From: Chthoniobacterales bacterium
GTDB lineage: Bacteria > Verrucomicrobiota > Verrucomicrobiia > Chthoniobacterales > JACTMZ01
Length of the DNA: 64,000 bases
NCBI GenBank assembly: GCA_049451035.1
Contig: JBMTVD010000001.1
Span: forward strand, 910-64,909
Reading direction: 5' to 3'
Of this stretch, positions 2,170 through 62,377 are shown piece after piece. Numbering within the stretch: position 1 is the first letter of the stretch; every line of letters starts with the position of its first letter. Both the position numbers and the translations under genes were made by a program. A model generated the notes under the pieces. That model was not told the DNA's origin and made no database searches. It worked only from the letters and a program-made list of their open reading frames with translations.

Positions 2170-3012
2170 ATGGCCGACCTCTCCGAACCTGCCTCCGCCG
2201 GAAGCCCGTGTTTGGCGCCGGGAAACCCGGCTCCCCCGGTCGACCGGCGCCGTTGCGTGGTCATCCCCAGCTACAATAACGGTCCGCGCCTCGAGCAGAC
2301 CGTGCGCGAAGTCCTGGCCGTCTGGCAACCGGTCGTCGTGGTCATCGACGGGTCGACCGACGGGAGCAACATTGCCATCGTCCACCTCGCCGCGCAGGAG
2401 CCCGGTCTCCACGTGTTGGCCCAGCCGCACAACACCGGCAAAGGCGCCGCCGTCTTCGCCGCTTTCAACTACGCCGTCGATCGCGGATGGACCAACGCGG
2501 TCGTGTTCGATGCCGACGGACAACACGATGCGGCCGACATACCGAAGTTCATGGAAGCGGCCGGGGAAAACCCGACCGCGCTGGTGCTGGGCCAACCGCA
2601 ATACGGCGACGACGCTCCTCTCTGGCATATCATCGGCCACGGCGTGGCCAACCGGCTGGCGAGACTGGAAACCCTGCGTCCCGGATTGGGTGATTCGCTC
2701 TTCGGGCTGCGTCTCTATCCCATGCTGGCCATGATCAAAGCGCTGCGACGCATCCGCGGCGGGCGTCGTTTCGATTTTGAGACACAGGCGGTAGTGCGCA
2801 TGGTCTGGCTGGGTGTACCCACCATGAAGCTGCCCGCGACGGTGCGCTATCCGAAGAATCGCGTCCGCCACTTCCGCTACCTGCGCGACAATCTCCTGCT
2901 CTGCCGCGTCCATTGCTGGCTCCTCCTGCGCTCGGTCTTCATCTGGCCCAAACTCCTCTGGCGCAAACTGACCAAAGCCCCGCCGTTTGACGCCGCCAAA
3001 TATCGCGGCTAA
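2170..3012 (+). CDS. Family 2 glycosyltransferase
   Basis: ATG at 2170 lies inside the longer 1195..3012 ORF. Motifs VVIPSYNNGPRLEQTV, IDGSTDGS and VVFDADGQHD (DxD), plus a C-terminal hydrophobic helix. Confidence 0.8.
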   Translation: MADLSEPASAGSPCLAPGNPAPPVDRRRCVVIPSYNNGPRLEQTVREVLAVWQPVVVVIDGSTDGSNIAIVHLAAQEPGLHVLAQPHNTGKGAAVFAAFNYAVDRGWTNAVVFDADGQHDAADIPKFMEAAGENPTALVLGQPQYGDDAPLWHIIGHGVANRLARLETLRPGLGDSLFGLRLYPMLAMIKALRRIRGGRRFDFETQAVVRMVWLGVPTMKLPATVRYPKNRVRHFRYLRDNLLLCRVHCWLLLRSVFIWPKLLWRKLTKAPPFDAAKYRG

Positions 3013-3027: not shown

Positions 3028-3102
3028 GCGCGGTTAGCTCAGCGGTAGAGCGGCTCGTTTACACCGAGTTGGTCGGGGGTTCGATCCCCTCACCGCGCAC
3101 CA
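3028..3102 (+). tRNA. tRNA-Val (anticodon UAC), CCA encoded
   Basis: Hand-folded cloverleaf. Acceptor GCGCGGU/ACCGCGC, D-stem GCUC/GAGC, anticodon stem GCUCG/CGAGU with loop UUUACAC, T-arm GGGGG-UUCGAUC-CCCUC, discriminator A, then CCA. Confidence 0.9.
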
Positions 3103-38732: not shown

Positions 38733-39836
38733 TCAGGCCCCGCCGACCCGCATGGGCATGAGAACGTAGACGAAGGGCGCGTTGATTTTGATCACTCCCG
38801 GACTGATGTCGTCGATCAATTCGATATGAACCTCGTCCTCGCTGAGGTAGCGCAGAGGAGCCATGAGGAACTCGGGATTGAAAGCGATGGAAATTTCTTT
38901 GCCCTTGTAGGCCACCGCCAGCGCCTCGCGGGCCTCGCCCACTTCCGGGGTGTTGCAGCTGATGTCGAGGTTGCCCTTTCCAAACGTCAGACGGACCGAG
39001 GCCGTTTTCTCGCTGTTGAGGAGCGAAACGCGGCGCACGGCATTGAGCAGCGACTCGCGCTCCACGGTGACACGCTCGTTGACCTTGGTCGGGATGACCT
39101 GCACATAGTTGGGATAGTTGCCCTCGACGAGTTTGGAGATAAGCGTGGTCGGACCGCAATCGAACTGCACCATGTTCTGGGCGAGGCGGACCACGACGTC
39201 CCCGTCATCCTTGAGAGCGCGCATCAGCTCGTGAATGGCCTTGGTGCGGACGATGAACTCGCGCTCCTGACTCTTGGGGATTTCGAGATCGTTGACTTCG
39301 GCCAGGGCAAGGCGGCGACCGTCGGTGGCCACGAGGGTGAGTTTGTCGCCCTTGAACGAGAAGAAGATGCCGTTGAGCACGTAGCGCGTCTCGTCGAGCG
39401 AGATGGCGTAGTGGGTTTTGCGCAGCGCGTCCTTCAGATCCGCCGACTTCAAGGTGAATTCCACGGGGCCGTCGAAAGCGGGCAGGCCGGGGAATTCCGC
39501 CTCCGGGAGGCCGAAGATTTTGTAGACGCCCGCACCGCTGTGGAGGGTCGCCACGCTCTTGGCGTCGACCTCGACGTCGATATCCGTTTTCGGGAGATCT
39601 TTGACCAGCGTACTCAAGCGCTTGGCCGGCAGGGTGGTGGTGCCCTGTTTGCCCGTCTTGGCCGCGACTTTGGTGCGCACGGTGAAATCCAGATCCGTGG
39701 CGGTGAGCGTCAGAGTGTCGCCCTCGGCTTGGAGGAGGACATTGGACAGGATCGGGAGGGTGCTGCGCGGGTTGACGGCACTGACCGCGTTGGTGAGACC
39801 GTCGGCGAAGGCTTCTTGGGAGATGGTGAATTTCAT
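38733..39836 (-). CDS. dnaN: DNA polymerase III beta sliding clamp
   Basis: ATG 39836 gives MKFTISQEAFADGLTNAVSAVNPRSTLPILSNVLL. 367 aa, directly downstream of dnaA. Confidence 0.95.
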   Translation of the reverse strand: MKFTISQEAFADGLTNAVSAVNPRSTLPILSNVLLQAEGDTLTLTATDLDFTVRTKVAAKTGKQGTTTLPAKRLSTLVKDLPKTDIDVEVDAKSVATLHSGAGVYKIFGLPEAEFPGLPAFDGPVEFTLKSADLKDALRKTHYAISLDETRYVLNGIFFSFKGDKLTLVATDGRRLALAEVNDLEIPKSQEREFIVRTKAIHELMRALKDDGDVVVRLAQNMVQFDCGPTTLISKLVEGNYPNYVQVIPTKVNERVTVERESLLNAVRRVSLLNSEKTASVRLTFGKGNLDISCNTPEVGEAREALAVAYKGKEISIAFNPEFLMAPLRYLSEDEVHIELIDDISPGVIKINAPFVYVLMPMRVGGA

Positions 39837-39927: not shown

Positions 39928-41406
39928 TCACCTTTGCAGCGAGGCCTCGAGGAAACGAACGACCTGCCGCAGGTTTTCTTCCTTGTCCATGCGGTTTTGC
40001 ACCGTCTTGCAGGCGTGGATGACGGTACCATGGTCCTTGCCACCGAAAGCCTCCCCGATGTCCTGCAGGGAACATTTGGTCAAACGCCGCGAAATGAACA
40101 TGGCGACCTGCCGGGGAAAAGCGATGTTGGCCGGACGGCGTTTGCTGGTCATGTCGGCCAACCGTACGTCGTAGTGCTCGGCCACCTTGCGCTGGACTTG
40201 GTCGATGTTGACCGCGCGGCGGGCTTCCTCCTGGAGAATATCCCGCAGGAGGTGCTCGACGGACTCGTCACTGAGGGGGCGCCCGCTCAGCGAGGCGAAA
40301 GAGGCCACACGCAAGAGCGCACCCTCGAGGCGGCGGACGTTGGATTTGATGCGATGCGCCAGATACTCGAGCACATGGGTGGGGAGGGTAACCTGGAGGC
40401 TGTCGGCCTTTTTACGGAGAATGGCCAACCGCGTCTCCATGTCGGGCGGTTGGAGTTCGGCCGTCAGGCCCCACTCGAAGCGCGAGACAAGGCGCTGCTC
40501 GAGTTGGGCGATCTCACTGGGGGGCTGATCGCTGGAGAGGACGATCTGTTTGCGGCCCTCGAACAGCGAGTTGAAGGTATGGAAGAACTCCTCTTGGGAA
40601 CGCTCCTTGCCGGCCAGAAACTGGATGTCATCGATCAGCAGGACATCGGCTTGGCGGTAACGCTTGCGGAACTTGACCAGGGAATTGGTCTGGATGGCCT
40701 GGATGAATTCGTTGGTGAAAGTCTCGCTGCGCAGATAGGCCACTTTGGCGCCGCGCTTGGAGCGCGCGATGTGGTGGCCGATGGCATGCAGGAGGTGCGT
40801 CTTGCCGAGACCGACGCCACCGTGGATGAAGAGAGGATTGTAAGTGCGCGAGGGCGACTTGGCCACCGCGAGCGAGGCGGCATGGGCGAACTCGCTGTTG
40901 CTGCCGACGACAAAGCTGTCGAAAACGTAGCGGGGGTTGAGCCCGTAGGAGTCGCGCGCTTTCTCTTCGGCCTCGACCTCCACCTCGGCGTTGCCCGGGG
41001 CTTCCTTGGCGGGCGTGTCGGCGAAGTTTTCACCGTTGGACACGACAAACTTGAGCTTCCTCTTTCCGCCCAGCACGGTGAGGAGTGCAGCTTGGACTTG
41101 CGCGGCGTAATTACTCTCGATCCATACCTGGTAGATGCTGTTCGGCACGGCCAGCGTGAGAGCCTTGGCATCGAGGGCCTCGAGCTTCGCAGTGGAAAAC
41201 CAGCGATCGAAAACGCCCTGGCCCAATTCATCGCGCAAGGCCGATGAAATCTGGGCCCATGGGTTTTCGGCCTCTCCGGAAACCGGAGAGTTATTCACTT
41301 TGTTCTTGGCGGAGACGGGGGACGACGAGGCGGCTGGACGGCTAGAGCGGCGCGGTCGGGAGGGCGTGTTCCGGGAAGACGAGCTTGGGGAGGCTTGTCG
41401 GGGCAT
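39928..41406 (-). CDS. dnaA: Chromosomal replication initiator protein DnaA
   Basis: Walker A IHGGVGLGKTHLLHAIG, LLIDDIQFL, and C-terminal DNA-binding FGGKDHGTVIHACKTV. The N-terminal linker is S/P/R-rich. Confidence 0.95.
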   Translation of the reverse strand: MPRQASPSSSSRNTPSRPRRSSRPAASSSPVSAKNKVNNSPVSGEAENPWAQISSALRDELGQGVFDRWFSTAKLEALDAKALTLAVPNSIYQVWIESNYAAQVQAALLTVLGGKRKLKFVVSNGENFADTPAKEAPGNAEVEVEAEEKARDSYGLNPRYVFDSFVVGSNSEFAHAASLAVAKSPSRTYNPLFIHGGVGLGKTHLLHAIGHHIARSKRGAKVAYLRSETFTNEFIQAIQTNSLVKFRKRYRQADVLLIDDIQFLAGKERSQEEFFHTFNSLFEGRKQIVLSSDQPPSEIAQLEQRLVSRFEWGLTAELQPPDMETRLAILRKKADSLQVTLPTHVLEYLAHRIKSNVRRLEGALLRVASFASLSGRPLSDESVEHLLRDILQEEARRAVNIDQVQRKVAEHYDVRLADMTSKRRPANIAFPRQVAMFISRRLTKCSLQDIGEAFGGKDHGTVIHACKTVQNRMDKEENLRQVVRFLEASLQR

Positions 41407-58091: not shown

Positions 58092-58502
58092 ATGAAACCG
58101 CTGCTTCTCTTGCTGCTCACCTGCGCCGCCGTCTTCGCCATGGAAACCAACCAACCGGCGGCCACGCTTCCCGGCAGCGCCTGGCAAGTGACGACCTTCG
58201 CCGGACAAAGCCCGCTGACCGGTCACCCGATCACCTTCGAATTCGACACCGAGGGGAATATCGCGGGCGACGCCTCGTGCAATCGTTTCGGCGGCTCGTG
58301 CGTTATCGAAGGCGACACAATCGAAGTCGGTCCCCTGCGCAGCACCCGCCGCGCCTGCGAACCGGAAGTGATGCAGCAGGAGCAAAAATTTCTCGCCCTG
58401 CTCGGCGTCACTACCACGTGGGCGCTCGAAGGCGAAGACCTCGTCCTGACCGGACCCGAAGGCGAAATCCGGGCGGTGAAAAACACCGCTTCCGCGGACT
58501 GA
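58092..58502 (+). CDS. META-domain (HslJ-like) secreted protein
   Basis: ATG 58092 gives the signal peptide MKPLLLLLLTCAAVFA. GNIAGDASCNRFGGSCVIEGDTIEVGPLRSTRRAC is the META signature. Confidence 0.8.
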   Translation: MKPLLLLLLTCAAVFAMETNQPAATLPGSAWQVTTFAGQSPLTGHPITFEFDTEGNIAGDASCNRFGGSCVIEGDTIEVGPLRSTRRACEPEVMQQEQKFLALLGVTTTWALEGEDLVLTGPEGEIRAVKNTASAD

Positions 58503-58520
58503 TCTTCTTCGCCCGGAGAC

Positions 58521-58556
58521 AAAAAACCCCGCGATCTTTCGATCGCGGGGTCTTTC
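58521..58556. terminator. Intrinsic terminator, strongest on the minus strand
   Basis: CCCCGCGATC-TTTC-GATCGCGGGG is a 10-bp stem at 58527-58550. On the plus strand it is followed by TCTTTC. On the minus strand the loop reads GAAA and the stem is followed by TTTTTT (58526-58521). Confidence 0.65.
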
Positions 58557-58560
58557 AAAG

Positions 58561-59440
58561 TTGGGAGTGGGGGCTCGCCACGCCCTCTTCCCCGGATACT
58601 GACATTTGGCGCTCAGCCTATGGGGGTTGGCTGTCAGTTCCCCGACGCTGTTCTCCACGGCAAGCGGAGTTTGCGGTCTCGCAGCAGGACCGTCCCGCCT
58701 GTCACCAGGCGGAAGTATCGGGTGAGGCCTCTTTGCCCGGTTCGGAAACCACCTGCCGGTGGCTTCTCGCCGGACACGGATCTGGCGCGTCGGTAAATCG
58801 TCGCCCCATCTCCGGCATGTTCCCGGGTCGGCCCCCGCTTTTGGCGGGGCGTTGGCCCGGGACGACGGGTCTGACCTCTTATCCCTCAAGTTGCATTTCT
58901 TTCACCGTCGGGCGACACCGTTTTCGATACCGCCCGTCTTGCGGAGCTTTTGCCAACTTTGCCAGGCTGGCTTTCCTCCCCGTCGCGCGCGCCCCTTTGC
59001 GCTTCCCCCCAGCAACGGGGGGATCTTCCGGCGGGGTTGTCCCGCCGAGGCGCGTTCGCCGTGCTGGTTCGCAGTAGCAACTCCGACCTTTTCTTCGTCA
59101 GGTCACTGCGTTTCCTCCGCGGCACGAAACTTTCCGCGGATTCTCACTCGGCCAAGCAGCGGTTTCTCATCGCCACTCGCCGCGGCATCCCCGATTCGCA
59201 TCGCCGCACCGGTGCGACCCGGCGCGGGGGGATCCGTGAGCTGTGCCCCGCTCGCGATGCCGTTGCCGGCACCTTCCGCAGGGAGCCAGGCGCACCAACT
59301 GCACCCGGCCTTTCTCCGGTTTGACCCGGAATTATCCCGGGGCTTTCCTCCGGACCTTCTCGGCTTGCGCCTCGTCGGCCCCTCGGTCTGCCCTTGTTCT
59401 GTCAAAGAACACCTGAACAATCCCAAGAACCCGGACGGAC
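58561..59440 (-). ncRNA. Candidate large structured noncoding RNA (identity unknown; strand inferred)
   Basis: There is no credible ORF in any frame. The block has dense GC hairpins, a GNRA loop that reads as GNRA only on the minus strand, a minus-strand terminator at its 3' end, and an AT-rich island at its 5' side. See the findings. Confidence 0.3.
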
Positions 59441-59481
59441 GTCAATAGTTTTTATTCGTAAATAGTTGATGGTGAATTGAT

Positions 59482-59552
59482 TGTGAATATCCTGTGAACA
59501 AGAATGGGAACTCTCTGCCGATCAGCGGGTTGTGCTTTTCGACTTGTTCACT
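59482..59552. promoter_or_regulatory. AT-rich island with DnaA-box-like motifs and a sigma-70-like promoter upstream of gyrA
   Basis: TGTGAATAT (59482-90, complement ATATTCACA), TGTGAACAA (59493-501, complement TTGTTCACA) and TTGTTCACT (59544-52). A possible promoter is TTGATG-N16-TATCCT (59466-59493). Confidence 0.35.
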
Positions 59553-59806
59553 CCCCCGTTTTCCTAGCGGAAAAATCGGCAAAAAATTTTACCGCCGCGC
59601 CAAAAAAAATCCGCTCGAGCGAACGGCCCGTCCCTCGCCATCAAACCCGCGGCCCCTGCCCCGCGCGGCGCAAAACTCGTCGCGCGCGACACCCCGCGCG
59701 CCGCTCGGCTTTTTGACGATTTGCGCTGGCGCTGACGCGCGCAAAAAGACACACTGTTCACTTACCCCGGACGCGCCGTGCGCGTACCAAAAAACAAGCA
59801 GTCTCC

Positions 59807-62377
59807 GTGTATACACAGAACGAAAAAGTCGAACCGATCGATGTCGCGGAGGAGATGTCACGCTCCTTCCTCGACTACTCCATGTCCGTCATAATCAGCC
59901 GCGCGTTGCCCGACGCGCGCGACGGACTCAAGCCCGCCCAGCGCCGCATCCTCTACGCGATGCACGACCTGCGTTTGTTCCCCGGACGACAGCACATCAA
60001 GTGTGCCAAGATTTGCGGCGACACCAGCGGCAACTACCACCCGCACGGCGAAGCGGTCATCTACCCCACCCTTGTGCACATGGCGCAAAACTGGGCCATG
60101 CGCGAAACACTCGTCGACGGCCAGGGCAACTTCGGCTCGGTCGAAGGCGACCCGCCGGCCGCCATGCGTTACACCGAGGCCCGCCTGACGCACCTCGGCA
60201 CGGCCCTCATGTCCGACATGGACAAGTCGACCGTCGACTTCGTCCCCAACTACGACGAGCGCCTGACCGAACCCGTTGTCTTCCCGGCCGCTTTCCCCAA
60301 TCTTCTGGTCAACGGCGGCACCGGTATCGCCGTCGGCATGGCCACCAACATGCCGCCGCACAACCTCGGCGAAGTCATCGACGCCATCTGCGCGCAGATC
60401 GACAAACCCGACATCACGCTCGAGGGCCTGATGAAGCACGTCAAAGGTCCCGACTTCCCGACGGGCTGCCAACTCTGCGGCGTGGGCGGCATCCGCCAAT
60501 ACCTCGAAACCGGCCGCGGATCGGTCAAAGTCCGCGGCAAAGCCGGCGTCGAGGAACTCAAGGGCAACCGCGAGCAGATCGTCATCACCGAGATCCCCTA
60601 CAACGTCAACCGCGCCACCCTCGTCGAGCGCATCGCGGATCTCGTCAACCAGAAGACGATCACCGACATCAGCGCCATCCGCGACGAATCGGACGAAAAG
60701 ACGCGCGTCGTCGTCGAACTCAAGCGCGACGCCAACCCCAAGGTTGTCATCAACAACCTCTACAAGCACACCGCGCTCGAGTCGTCGTTCCCCATCACGA
60801 TGCTGGCCATCGACCACGGCAAGCCGAAGCTCCTGTCGCTCAAGGAAGCCATTGCCTGCTACATCGAGCACCGCCGCGAAGTCGTCCTGCGCCGCACCCG
60901 CCACCTCCTCGGCGAGGCCGAAGTCCGCGCGGAAAAACTCGAGGCTTTTCTCATTGCCCTGGCCAACCTCGACGAATTCATCCGCATCATCCGCGGCTCG
61001 AAGAACCGCGAGGAAGCCAAAGTCAAACTCCTCGCCTTCGAATTCACCAAGAAACAGGTGGAAAAATTCGGGGTCAAAATCCGCAGCGAACAACGCCTGA
61101 GCGACGGCGAATATCTTCTCAGCGAACAGCAGGTCGACGACATCCTCGAACTCCGCCTCTACCAGCTGACCGGCATGGAGAGCGACAAGGTTCTCGCCGA
61201 ATACAAAGAACTCCTCTCCACCATCGAGGACCTCATGGACATCCTCGCCCGCGAGGAACGCGTGCTCGGCATCATCAAAACCGAACTTGGCGAGATCAAA
61301 GCCAAATACGCCGGCCCCCGCCTGACCGACATCGTCCCCGACGAGGGCGAGATCAACATCGAGGACCTCATCACCAACGAGGGCTGCATCATCACCGTCA
61401 CCCACCGCGGCTTCATCAAACGCACCGCGGTCAGCGCCTACCGCGCCCAGAAACGGGGAGGCAAAGGCGTCATCGGCATGCAGACCCGCGAGGCCAAGGC
61501 CGAGAACGAGGAAGATGATTTCGTCGAGCACCTCTTCACCGCCAGCACGCACGACTATCTCGTCTTCTTCACCAAGAAGGGCCGTTGCTACGTCGAGAAA
61601 GCCTACAACATTCCCGAGATGGGCCGCGCCGCCAAAGGCCGCTCCATCGCCAACCTGCTCGAATTCAAACCCGGCGAGGAAATCGCCGCCGTCATGCGCA
61701 TCCAAGCCAAGAGCGGCGCGGACAAAGACGAGACGTGGGATGAAAATCTCCACATTCTTTTCGCCACCCGCACCGGCGTGATCAAGAAGAGCAACCTCTC
61801 CTCTTACCGCAACATCCGCAAAGGCGGCATCATCGCCATCAACATCGAGGACGGCGACGAACTGATCGCCGCCCTCATGACCGACGGCCACAACGAGATC
61901 GTCCTCATCACCAAGGACGGCATGAGCATCCGTTTCAGCGAGGAAGACATCCGCGACATGGGCCGCACCGCCACCGGCGTGTGGGGCATTCGTCCGGACA
62001 AGAAAGATTTCGTCATCGGCGCCGCCCTTGTCGTGCCCGACGCCACTCTGCTGGTGGCCGGGGCCAACGGTGTGGGCAAACGCACCGAATTCGACGAATA
62101 CCGGCTGCAGAAACGCGGTGGCAAAGGCATCATCACCATGAAGGTCACCGACAAGACCGGCGAGGTGGTCAGCGCCCTGAGCGTCCGCGAAAACGACGAA
62201 ATCATGCTCATCACCAGCGGCGGACAAAGCGTCCGCACCCGCGTGAGTGAGATCCGCATGACCGGCCGCAACGCCCAGGGTGTGCGCCTTATCGGCCTGG
62301 GCGAAGGCGAACACCTCCAAGCCATGGCCCCCGTCGTCAGCCAGAGCCAGGAAGACGAAGCCGAAAACGCAGAATAA
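59807..62377 (+). CDS. gyrA: DNA gyrase subunit A
   Basis: GTG start. SFLDYSMSVIISRALPDARDGLKPAQRRILY, HPHGE and AAMRYTE (catalytic Tyr), plus C-terminal beta-pinwheel repeats. 856 aa. Confidence 0.97.
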   Translation: MYTQNEKVEPIDVAEEMSRSFLDYSMSVIISRALPDARDGLKPAQRRILYAMHDLRLFPGRQHIKCAKICGDTSGNYHPHGEAVIYPTLVHMAQNWAMRETLVDGQGNFGSVEGDPPAAMRYTEARLTHLGTALMSDMDKSTVDFVPNYDERLTEPVVFPAAFPNLLVNGGTGIAVGMATNMPPHNLGEVIDAICAQIDKPDITLEGLMKHVKGPDFPTGCQLCGVGGIRQYLETGRGSVKVRGKAGVEELKGNREQIVITEIPYNVNRATLVERIADLVNQKTITDISAIRDESDEKTRVVVELKRDANPKVVINNLYKHTALESSFPITMLAIDHGKPKLLSLKEAIACYIEHRREVVLRRTRHLLGEAEVRAEKLEAFLIALANLDEFIRIIRGSKNREEAKVKLLAFEFTKKQVEKFGVKIRSEQRLSDGEYLLSEQQVDDILELRLYQLTGMESDKVLAEYKELLSTIEDLMDILAREERVLGIIKTELGEIKAKYAGPRLTDIVPDEGEINIEDLITNEGCIITVTHRGFIKRTAVSAYRAQKRGGKGVIGMQTREAKAENEEDDFVEHLFTASTHDYLVFFTKKGRCYVEKAYNIPEMGRAAKGRSIANLLEFKPGEEIAAVMRIQAKSGADKDETWDENLHILFATRTGVIKKSNLSSYRNIRKGGIIAINIEDGDELIAALMTDGHNEIVLITKDGMSIRFSEEDIRDMGRTATGVWGIRPDKKDFVIGAALVVPDATLLVAGANGVGKRTEFDEYRLQKRGGKGIITMKVTDKTGEVVSALSVRENDEIMLITSGGQSVRTRVSEIRMTGRNAQGVRLIGLGEGEHLQAMAPVVSQSQEDEAENAE

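Follow-up and report, generated by a model that had tools for sequence, protein, structure and literature searches.

Among the large orphan RNAs of bacteria, OLE, GOLLD, ROOL and raiA are several hundred nucleotides (nt) long, elaborately structured and rich in conserved unpaired nucleotides, and they had no function on record when they were discovered. MISL RNA (RF03079), the subject of this study, resembles them in all these respects and is among the largest bacterial RNAs without a known function. The family is typed in Rfam as a gene of the small RNA (sRNA) class, not as a cis-regulatory element, and is said to have come from a comparative screen in 2017. According to PMC5737381, GOLLD and ROOL are associated with tRNAs, prophages or plasmids; its main text does not mention MISL. 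Beyond the Rfam entry, MISL appeared in the literature only as a test case for chemical mapping, with in-vitro mapping of a MISL window (bioRxiv 10.1101/2024.02.24.581671), and nothing was found on its function, on a 5' extension or on DnaA boxes in the literature covered, which for the 2017 report was the main text.

Here we describe a MISL locus in 64,000 nt of DNA from a Chthoniobacterales bacterium (contig JBMTVD010000001.1, positions 910 to 64,909; this whole stretch is called the window), where it lies on the minus strand between a META-domain gene and gyrA. As a whole, we read the locus as very likely encoding a stable, structured, stand-alone RNA, probably one under the control of DnaA. 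A preliminary description of the same DNA had proposed a large structured minus-strand non-coding RNA extending from just downstream of an AT-rich island to an intrinsic terminator, and this outline is borne out. When the whole window was scanned against Rfam 15, the block matched MISL over the complete model, positions 1-751 of 751, with 454.4 bits against a gathering score of 274.6 (E 1.6e-136):

58570-59337, minus strand: MISL core, RF03079 model positions 1-751, with about 30 helices, mostly hairpins, plus a long-range helix that closes a multi-stem junction

The covariance-model check that had been proposed for the block therefore returned a clean full-length hit, and it is practically certain that the block is the MISL RNA gene of Verrucomicrobiota, a family already catalogued in Rfam. 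The possibility that the RNA was an undescribed one falls with this match; the block is a further copy of a catalogued family, so the claim of a discovery lapses. A cmscan of 58300-59900 with permissive filters gave no other Rfam family at E <= 1, save a weak, terminator-like Thr_leader hit on the MISL 3' end (20.7 bits against a gathering score of 55). RNase P, tmRNA, SRP, 6S, OLE, GOLLD, ROOL and group I and II introns had no covariance-model match in this interval, in agreement with the earlier exclusion by eye of the first four. The GyrA and META proteins of the window are exact matches to proteins of uncultured Chthoniobacterales metagenome-assembled genomes (MAGs).

A decayed protein gene, or chance hairpins in a GC-rich spacer, would be another way to account for such a block, and long open reading frames (ORFs) do overlap MISL on both strands. 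The gap in which it lies, 58503-59806, is bounded by two genes:

58092-58502, plus strand: META-domain gene, left neighbour of the MISL block
59807-62377, plus strand: gyrA, right neighbour of the MISL block

The ORFs in this gap are of low complexity only, and the four longest of those overlapping the block have no Pfam match, as expected from the earlier statement that no credible ORF lies between META and gyrA. The neighbours do match Pfam (META, RNase HII-family, type III glutamine synthetase, gyrase). On the minus strand the 926-nt block folds to -462.6 kcal/mol, compared with -404.3 +/- 6.3 in dinucleotide shuffles (z = -9.3; 20 shuffles per strand), and on the plus strand z is -6.0; the suggested folding control thus falls well below shuffled sequence and agrees with the strand that had been chosen. 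The hairpins listed in the preliminary description are helices of the Rfam MISL alignment, among them CCGCCUG-GUGA-CAGGCGG, whose loop is of the GNRA type on the minus strand only. As had been noted, the block has three copies of the octamer GGAGGAAA on its minus strand. In the whole window it is present 8 times where 3.0 copies are expected, and 2 of 100 shuffles attain 8. As a functional repeat it was rejected: its sites are not kept in the MISL family consensus and are for this reason treated as incidental.

Comparison with relatives decides the matter. Species-representative genomes scanned with the conserved 17-mer TAAGAGGNNAGACCCGT gave at least 120 loci, and nhmmer confirmed MISL in 101 of the 120 among the matches listed. 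Nearly all of these come from Verrucomicrobiota MAGs, labelled Opitutales, Limisphaerales/Pedosphaera, Verrucomicrobiales or Chthoniobacteraceae, and the 13 loci picked across clades matched RF03079 at full length with 365-583 bits. The Rfam structure was projected on a MAFFT alignment, not fitted to structure, of the window and 70 full-length homologues that are 55-66% identical to it. Across these 71 sequences standard pairs fill 82.4% of the cells, and sliding the 3' partners lowers this to 39-43%. The covariation score of 0.391 compares with no more than 0.112 in the slid versions; none of 500 shuffles matched the observed pairing and covariation values. Pairing is poor in a few helices only, which are variable hairpins badly aligned by MAFFT. 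Both sides have changed in 136 of the 174 pairs, so the covariation that had been called for in relatives is present, and these compensatory changes, together with the folding score, the lack of Pfam matches and the full-length covariance-model homologues, refute a decayed gene or chance hairpins, to which we give virtually no credence.

Conservation is not confined to the helices. Columns at least 90% identical make up 44% of the unpaired positions and 34% of the paired ones, and it is around the single multi-stem junction of MISL that the longest invariant unpaired runs lie:

58865-58890, 58720-58728 and 58641-58648, minus strand: invariant single-stranded runs CCUGAGAGnUAAGAGGnnAGACCCGU, GCCUCACUC and GCGUCGGG

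The invariant single strands, which include AGACCCGU and GCGUCGGG, might form a possible GACCCG/CGGGG pseudoknot; because its two sides never vary, such a pairing is beyond the reach of covariation.

The conserved RNA is longer than the Rfam model. Homology found by nhmmer continues past both model boundaries, from about window position 59411 to 58517, and begins at query position 20-31, with invariant columns T32-A43. The conserved transcript would accordingly comprise about 890 nt (about 59410 to 58521), some 140 nt beyond the 751-position model, with the following parts outside the core:

59338-59410, minus strand: MISL 5' extension, conserved and outside the Rfam model; a 5'-terminal hairpin followed by a covarying helix
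59410-59396, minus strand: MISL 5'-terminal hairpin, GUUCUUUGACAGAAC, with near-invariant loop bases
58521-58569, minus strand: MISL 3' tail and terminator; tail CCCACUCCCAACUUUGAAAGA, stem-loop 58527-58550, U6 58521-58526
58527-58550, minus strand: terminator stem, CCCCGCGAUC-GAAA-GAUCGCGGGG
58521-58526, minus strand: terminator U6 run, as read in the sequence

The 5' extension opens with GUUCnUUGAnAGAAC (59410-59396). The stem of this hairpin is paired in 98.9% of cases and its sole variation, U-A to U-G, is compatible with pairing in a minus-strand RNA, and in the second helix, which closes just before GGAUAAU, each of the 5 pairs has compensatory changes. The boundaries of the transcript are in this way newly defined, with an invariant terminal hairpin that the Rfam model does not contain. 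At the other end the tail is conserved and C-rich, the family consensus finishing with CCCACCCCC..UUUG, a GC hairpin and a U run. The minus-strand intrinsic terminator is as first described. A consensus terminator scan did not list it, likely because the stem extends into adjoining runs: the hairpin (58521-58559) stands between an A run and a U-rich run, and in the minimum free energy fold the stem reaches 16 bp by running into them. The same extension suggests that the terminator can act bidirectionally, being common to MISL and the convergent META gene.

Upstream of the 5' hairpin lies a candidate promoter:

59417-59445, minus strand: putative sigma-70-type promoter; -35 TTGACG at 59445-59440, 17-nt spacer, -10 GATTGT at 59422-59417
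59446-59470, minus strand: A/T-rich stretch ATCAACTATTTACGAATAAAAACTA, directly upstream of the -35 in the position of an UP element, whose function it may have; core of the AT-rich island

In 71 of 71 loci an xAxxxT hexamer resembling a -10 element stands 6-8 nt upstream of the invariant GTTC of the hairpin, and in other clades this hexamer is much stronger (TATGAT, TAAGAT, TATAAT). A consensus promoter scan did not flag the promoter of the window because its -10 fits only 3 of 6 positions. From the spacing of the -10 to the hairpin, and from the TTGACG 17 nt further upstream, we infer that transcription probably starts at or beside the first base of the hairpin, near 59410. AT content is 51% at -100..0 across the 71 loci, against a background of 36-38%. 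The AT-rich island that had been noted is real, with a GC fraction of 0.39-0.40 at 59400-59549 in surroundings of about 0.6-0.7, and we take it to be the putative MISL promoter, the A/T stretch in UP position and the predicted DnaA boxes described below.

The genes around MISL are shared only by members of a clade, and in every case the one upstream is divergent. In an Opitutaceae-like clade the order is an HrpB-like helicase (divergent), MISL and TypA; in a Pedosphaerales-like clade it is an M23 peptidase and a lipoprotein (divergent), MISL, then CysK and Rho; a third clade has a GFO-family gene beside MISL, and the lineage of the window has gyrA. The helicase, TypA, CysK and Rho were considered as partners of MISL and rejected, their association being clade-specific and looking like inherited synteny. 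A conserved synteny with gyrA, META or RNase HIII was likewise discarded, these genes being near MISL in 0 of 101 loci among the matches listed. Closer to the window, the META-MISL-gyrA order is kept in three relatives (L144-146) whose MISL is 92.5% identical, while in a slightly more distant one (L147, positions 2468-3001), with nucleotide identities to the window of 93% in gyrA and 80% in RNase H/META, META and gyrA are just 116 nt apart, with neither MISL nor DnaA boxes between them. Among close lineages, then, some have the unit of MISL and boxes and others lack it.

These data bear on the view that the block is a cis-acting leader or untranslated region of a neighbouring gene. Its intergenic position and its dense structure would suit a leader, as would the weak Thr_leader hit over its 3' end. 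However, the RNA runs on its own strand into an intrinsic terminator, beyond which lies a convergent gene; the downstream genes vary by clade and are 26-1800 nt away; and the class given to the family in Rfam is that of a gene. A leader is in our judgement very improbable.

A mobile origin, either as a large RNA associated with phages, like GOLLD and ROOL, or as part of a transposable cassette, would be in line with a neighbourhood that changes between clades, with presence or absence between close relatives, and with MISL sequences on three IMG/VR contigs. These contigs are fragments of only 2.2-2.4 kb, however, and blastn of MISL found no match in the phage records of INPHARED (50,697) or the plasmid records of PLSDB (72,556). 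Genes for tRNAs are near MISL in 3 of 60 loci among the matches listed. At MISL, a search for flanking direct repeats or internal duplication gave just short repeats at chance level, and the conserved neighbours include no cluster of integrase, transposase or reverse transcriptase genes. The window contains a single copy, and each long contig gave a single hit. We attach very little weight to a mobile element. The variable neighbours, the rarity of tRNAs, the lack of phage and plasmid matches and the single copy instead argue for a stand-alone gene: MISL behaves as a single-copy, vertically inherited chromosomal gene across several Verrucomicrobiota orders, not linked to phages or tRNAs, and that it is an independent transcription unit we hold with high confidence. 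The only other Rfam hit in the window is far from the block:

3028-3099, plus strand: tRNA gene

Some of the contigs that carry MISL merit separate mention. The three 'viral' IMG/VR contigs (L123, L135 and L139) are 2.2-2.4 kb long, and L123 has a full-length MISL of 534 bits; they are probably false viral calls, a judgement made because the curated phage collection has no match. MISL, full or partial, also occurs on contigs labelled Dongiaceae, Stutzerimonas (an 858-nt scaffold), Saccharimonadales, Bifidobacterium/Bifidobacteriaceae and 'Akkermansia muciniphila' (a lake MAG); the loci with labels from other phyla or odd taxa are L036, L044, L046, L087, L097, L100 and L101. Most likely these contigs are mis-binned or contaminating Verrucomicrobiota DNA, and MISL might be used as a marker of contamination of this kind. 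Four metagenome contigs (L141, L142, L143 and L146) break in the MISL 3' domain within a span of about 110 nt (window 58607-58716): this is where three of them, from strains that are 99.7% identical, come to an end and where the fourth, whose source is a close relative (about 91.5% identical over MISL), starts. Such a hotspot of assembly breaks may reflect strain variation, a repeat, or a loss of coverage at GC hairpins.

A loop motif repeated in the manner of CsrB is not present in MISL. A unit bounded by a terminator, with a 5' hairpin, about 30 helices, invariant junction linkers and no CsrB-type motif, points to a trans-acting RNA with specific single-stranded or tertiary recognition. We consider it most likely that MISL is a stable RNA acting in trans, and not a leader or a base-pairing sRNA. 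A function of the protein-scaffold type, in which the RNA would be a platform recognised by proteins or through tertiary contacts, may be put forward as a tentative suggestion.

What is new at this locus is a predicted array of DnaA boxes that precedes the MISL promoter across Verrucomicrobiota. The upstream regions were anchored on the invariant 5' hairpin and searched for the box TTATNCACA / TGTGNATAA with at most 1 mismatch. These regions, otherwise unalignable between clades, have DnaA-box-type 9-mers in common. At this tolerance the density of boxes is 11.6 per kb over the 200 nt upstream and 0.20 per kb elsewhere, a difference of about 58-fold; that of perfect boxes is 2.46 per kb compared with 0.006 in the rest of the same loci. 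Among the matches listed, at least one box is found in 63 of 69 loci, at least two in 53 and at least three in 33. Relative to the 5' hairpin the boxes recur at -51, -62/63, -80/81, -83, -113, -149 and -184; the cluster is limited to -250..-50, with no second one downstream, and 170 boxes were observed where dinucleotide shuffles of the same segments gave 5.9 +/- 2.6. In the window the array comprises four sites:

59471-59501, minus strand: three DnaA-box-like 9-mers in one orientation with 2-bp gaps, TTGTTCACA-gg-ATATTCACA-at-CAATTCACC
59501-59493, minus strand: DnaA-box-like 9-mer TTGTTCACA
59490-59482, minus strand: DnaA-box-like 9-mer ATATTCACA
59479-59471, minus strand: DnaA-box-like 9-mer CAATTCACC
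59544-59552, plus strand: fourth DnaA-box-like site TTGTTCACT, in the opposite orientation

The three minus-strand boxes are conserved in the relatives L144, L146 and L042, and the fourth site is kept in the Chthoniobacterales relatives, with GTGAACAAG / GTGCACAAC aligned in 4 of 4 sequences. The paired motif CTATTCACA-ag-TTGTTCACA is found also upstream of dnaA in the window, which supports reading the sites upstream of MISL as DnaA boxes.

A LexA-type reading of GTTC-N7-GAAC was considered and set aside as unlikely, the Verrucomicrobia LexA motif being reported to have a different spacing. A direct repeat, TGTTCACTCCCCC / TGTTCACTTACCC, occurs at 59545-59557 and 59755-59767, with the DnaA-box-like core TGTTCAC in both copies; the second copy precedes the gyrA start by about 45 nt, and gyrA may thus also be under the influence of DnaA.

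An array of boxes next to AT-rich DNA is typical of the chromosomal origin, oriC, and transcription beside oriC helps opening, as with gidA in E. coli and in Caulobacter. One might accordingly think that the boxes, the AT-rich stretch and MISL form or abut oriC or a secondary origin, where MISL transcription would help opening or the RNA itself would act. Several observations are in favour: the boxes are placed at 11-nt spacing (2-bp gaps) and in opposed orientations beside the most AT-rich 100 nt of the area; they travel with MISL while the neighbouring genes change; the flanking genes point away on both sides in two large clades; and MISL is only 18 kb from dnaA in the window. The dnaA region itself, however, has the stronger claim:

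39964-41259, minus strand: dnaA, 18 kb from MISL
38745-39836, minus strand: dnaN, beside dnaA
41817-43127, minus strand: argA-like gene, upstream of dnaA
41291, 41544 and 41555: boxes TTATTCACT, CTATTCACA and TTGTTCACA, respectively, in the spacer upstream of dnaA

The 557-nt spacer upstream of dnaA is the best DnaA-box cluster of the window, if only slightly, with a score of 7 as against 6 upstream of MISL (mean over the 64 kb 0.85, standard deviation 1.08). The boxes of this spacer persist in two relatives whose contigs measure about 0.95 Mb; after them come dnaA, dnaN and about ten genes of the same orientation, and the strand changes at secG|argA. These boxes, the co-oriented genes and the strand switch amount to a classical oriC signature, and the dnaA spacer region is the probable oriC. 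The same two contigs have no MISL in the 10 kb to the left or the right of dnaA. A literature search found no work on DnaA boxes or oriC in Verrucomicrobia.

At MISL (59.5 kb), by contrast, there is no switch of strand or skew, the genes on both sides being on the plus strand. As a test of origins, GC skew was discarded: in the window it follows gene orientation, the coding strand being C-rich, and holds no replication signal at the 64-kb scale. The GC fraction is 0.39 at 59400-59499, but this is also where the -35, the UP-type position and the -10 of the putative promoter are located, which would explain the low value. The whole unit is also missing at the site in a close relative, and most loci have just 2-4 good boxes in 200 bp. 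We consequently favour a DnaA-controlled promoter over an origin at MISL: the synthesis of MISL under DnaA control is a reasonably likely reading of the conserved boxes, and an origin is improbable.

Several points weigh against DnaA control of an independent MISL unit. The loci are phylogenetically related, so that the locus counts overstate independence, and the upstream regions cannot otherwise be aligned between clades. The -10 hexamer GATTGT of the window is weak, and we infer both promoter and start. Clusters of DnaA boxes can be titration sites or origins instead of regulatory sites, and no conserved neighbouring protein gene points to a partner of MISL.

With this in mind, one may propose the following model. 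MISL would form its own minus-strand unit, with a promoter at about 59445-59417, a start near 59410, a length of about 890 nt and a stop at 58550-58521. DnaA would bind the box array at about -250 to -50 and control the synthesis of the RNA, and its level would in this manner be tied to the status of replication and of the cell cycle. The RNA would begin with the terminal hairpin and continue with about 30 helices, its conserved single-stranded linkers being arranged around the one multi-stem junction. Such control, if true, would link MISL to replication or growth status and would be the first functional lead for this RNA.

A further step would be to regard the array and MISL as one module, in which DnaA controls the RNA and the RNA acts back on the initiation of replication or on the chromosome cycle. 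In a stronger form the module itself would be an origin, or an origin-like site for loading or titration of DnaA, that needs the transcript. Both forms taken together seem doubtful to us. If true, they would mean an RNA component in the control of bacterial chromosome replication without a described counterpart.

How, then, does this locus compare with known systems? With OLE, GOLLD, ROOL and raiA it shows no similarity of sequence or model, and MISL is confined to one phylum; its architecture, mostly serial hairpins with one multi-stem junction, also sets it apart from other large orphan RNAs. It is not tied to tRNAs, prophages or plasmids as GOLLD and ROOL are, and an operon with a partner protein, as in OLE, is not evident. 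In bacteria, transcripts that flank or prime origins include gidA and mioC at E. coli oriC and RNA II of ColE1. Like MISL, these are structured or active transcripts starting beside DnaA-box or AT-rich DNA; in the case of MISL, however, the likelier oriC is 18 kb off, and transcription proceeds away from the boxes to a terminator. DnaA-regulated promoters and box clusters outside the origin are found at dnaA, nrdAB and mioC in E. coli and at sda, ywlC and yydA in B. subtilis. These resemble the MISL locus in having several boxes at fixed positions near a promoter and away from oriC, whereas the product controlled at MISL would be a structured RNA of about 890 nt. We know of no DnaA-regulated large structured RNA of this kind, and none was found in the literature search. 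With the catalogued family, RF03079, the locus shares a full-length model match, the same covarying helices, its occurrence in Verrucomicrobiota and the organization as a stand-alone gene. It differs from the catalogued form in being some 140 nt longer, with a 5' hairpin, an extra helix, a 3' tail and a terminator, and in the predicted DnaA-box array before its promoter, which offers this large orphan RNA a new lead, modest but concrete.

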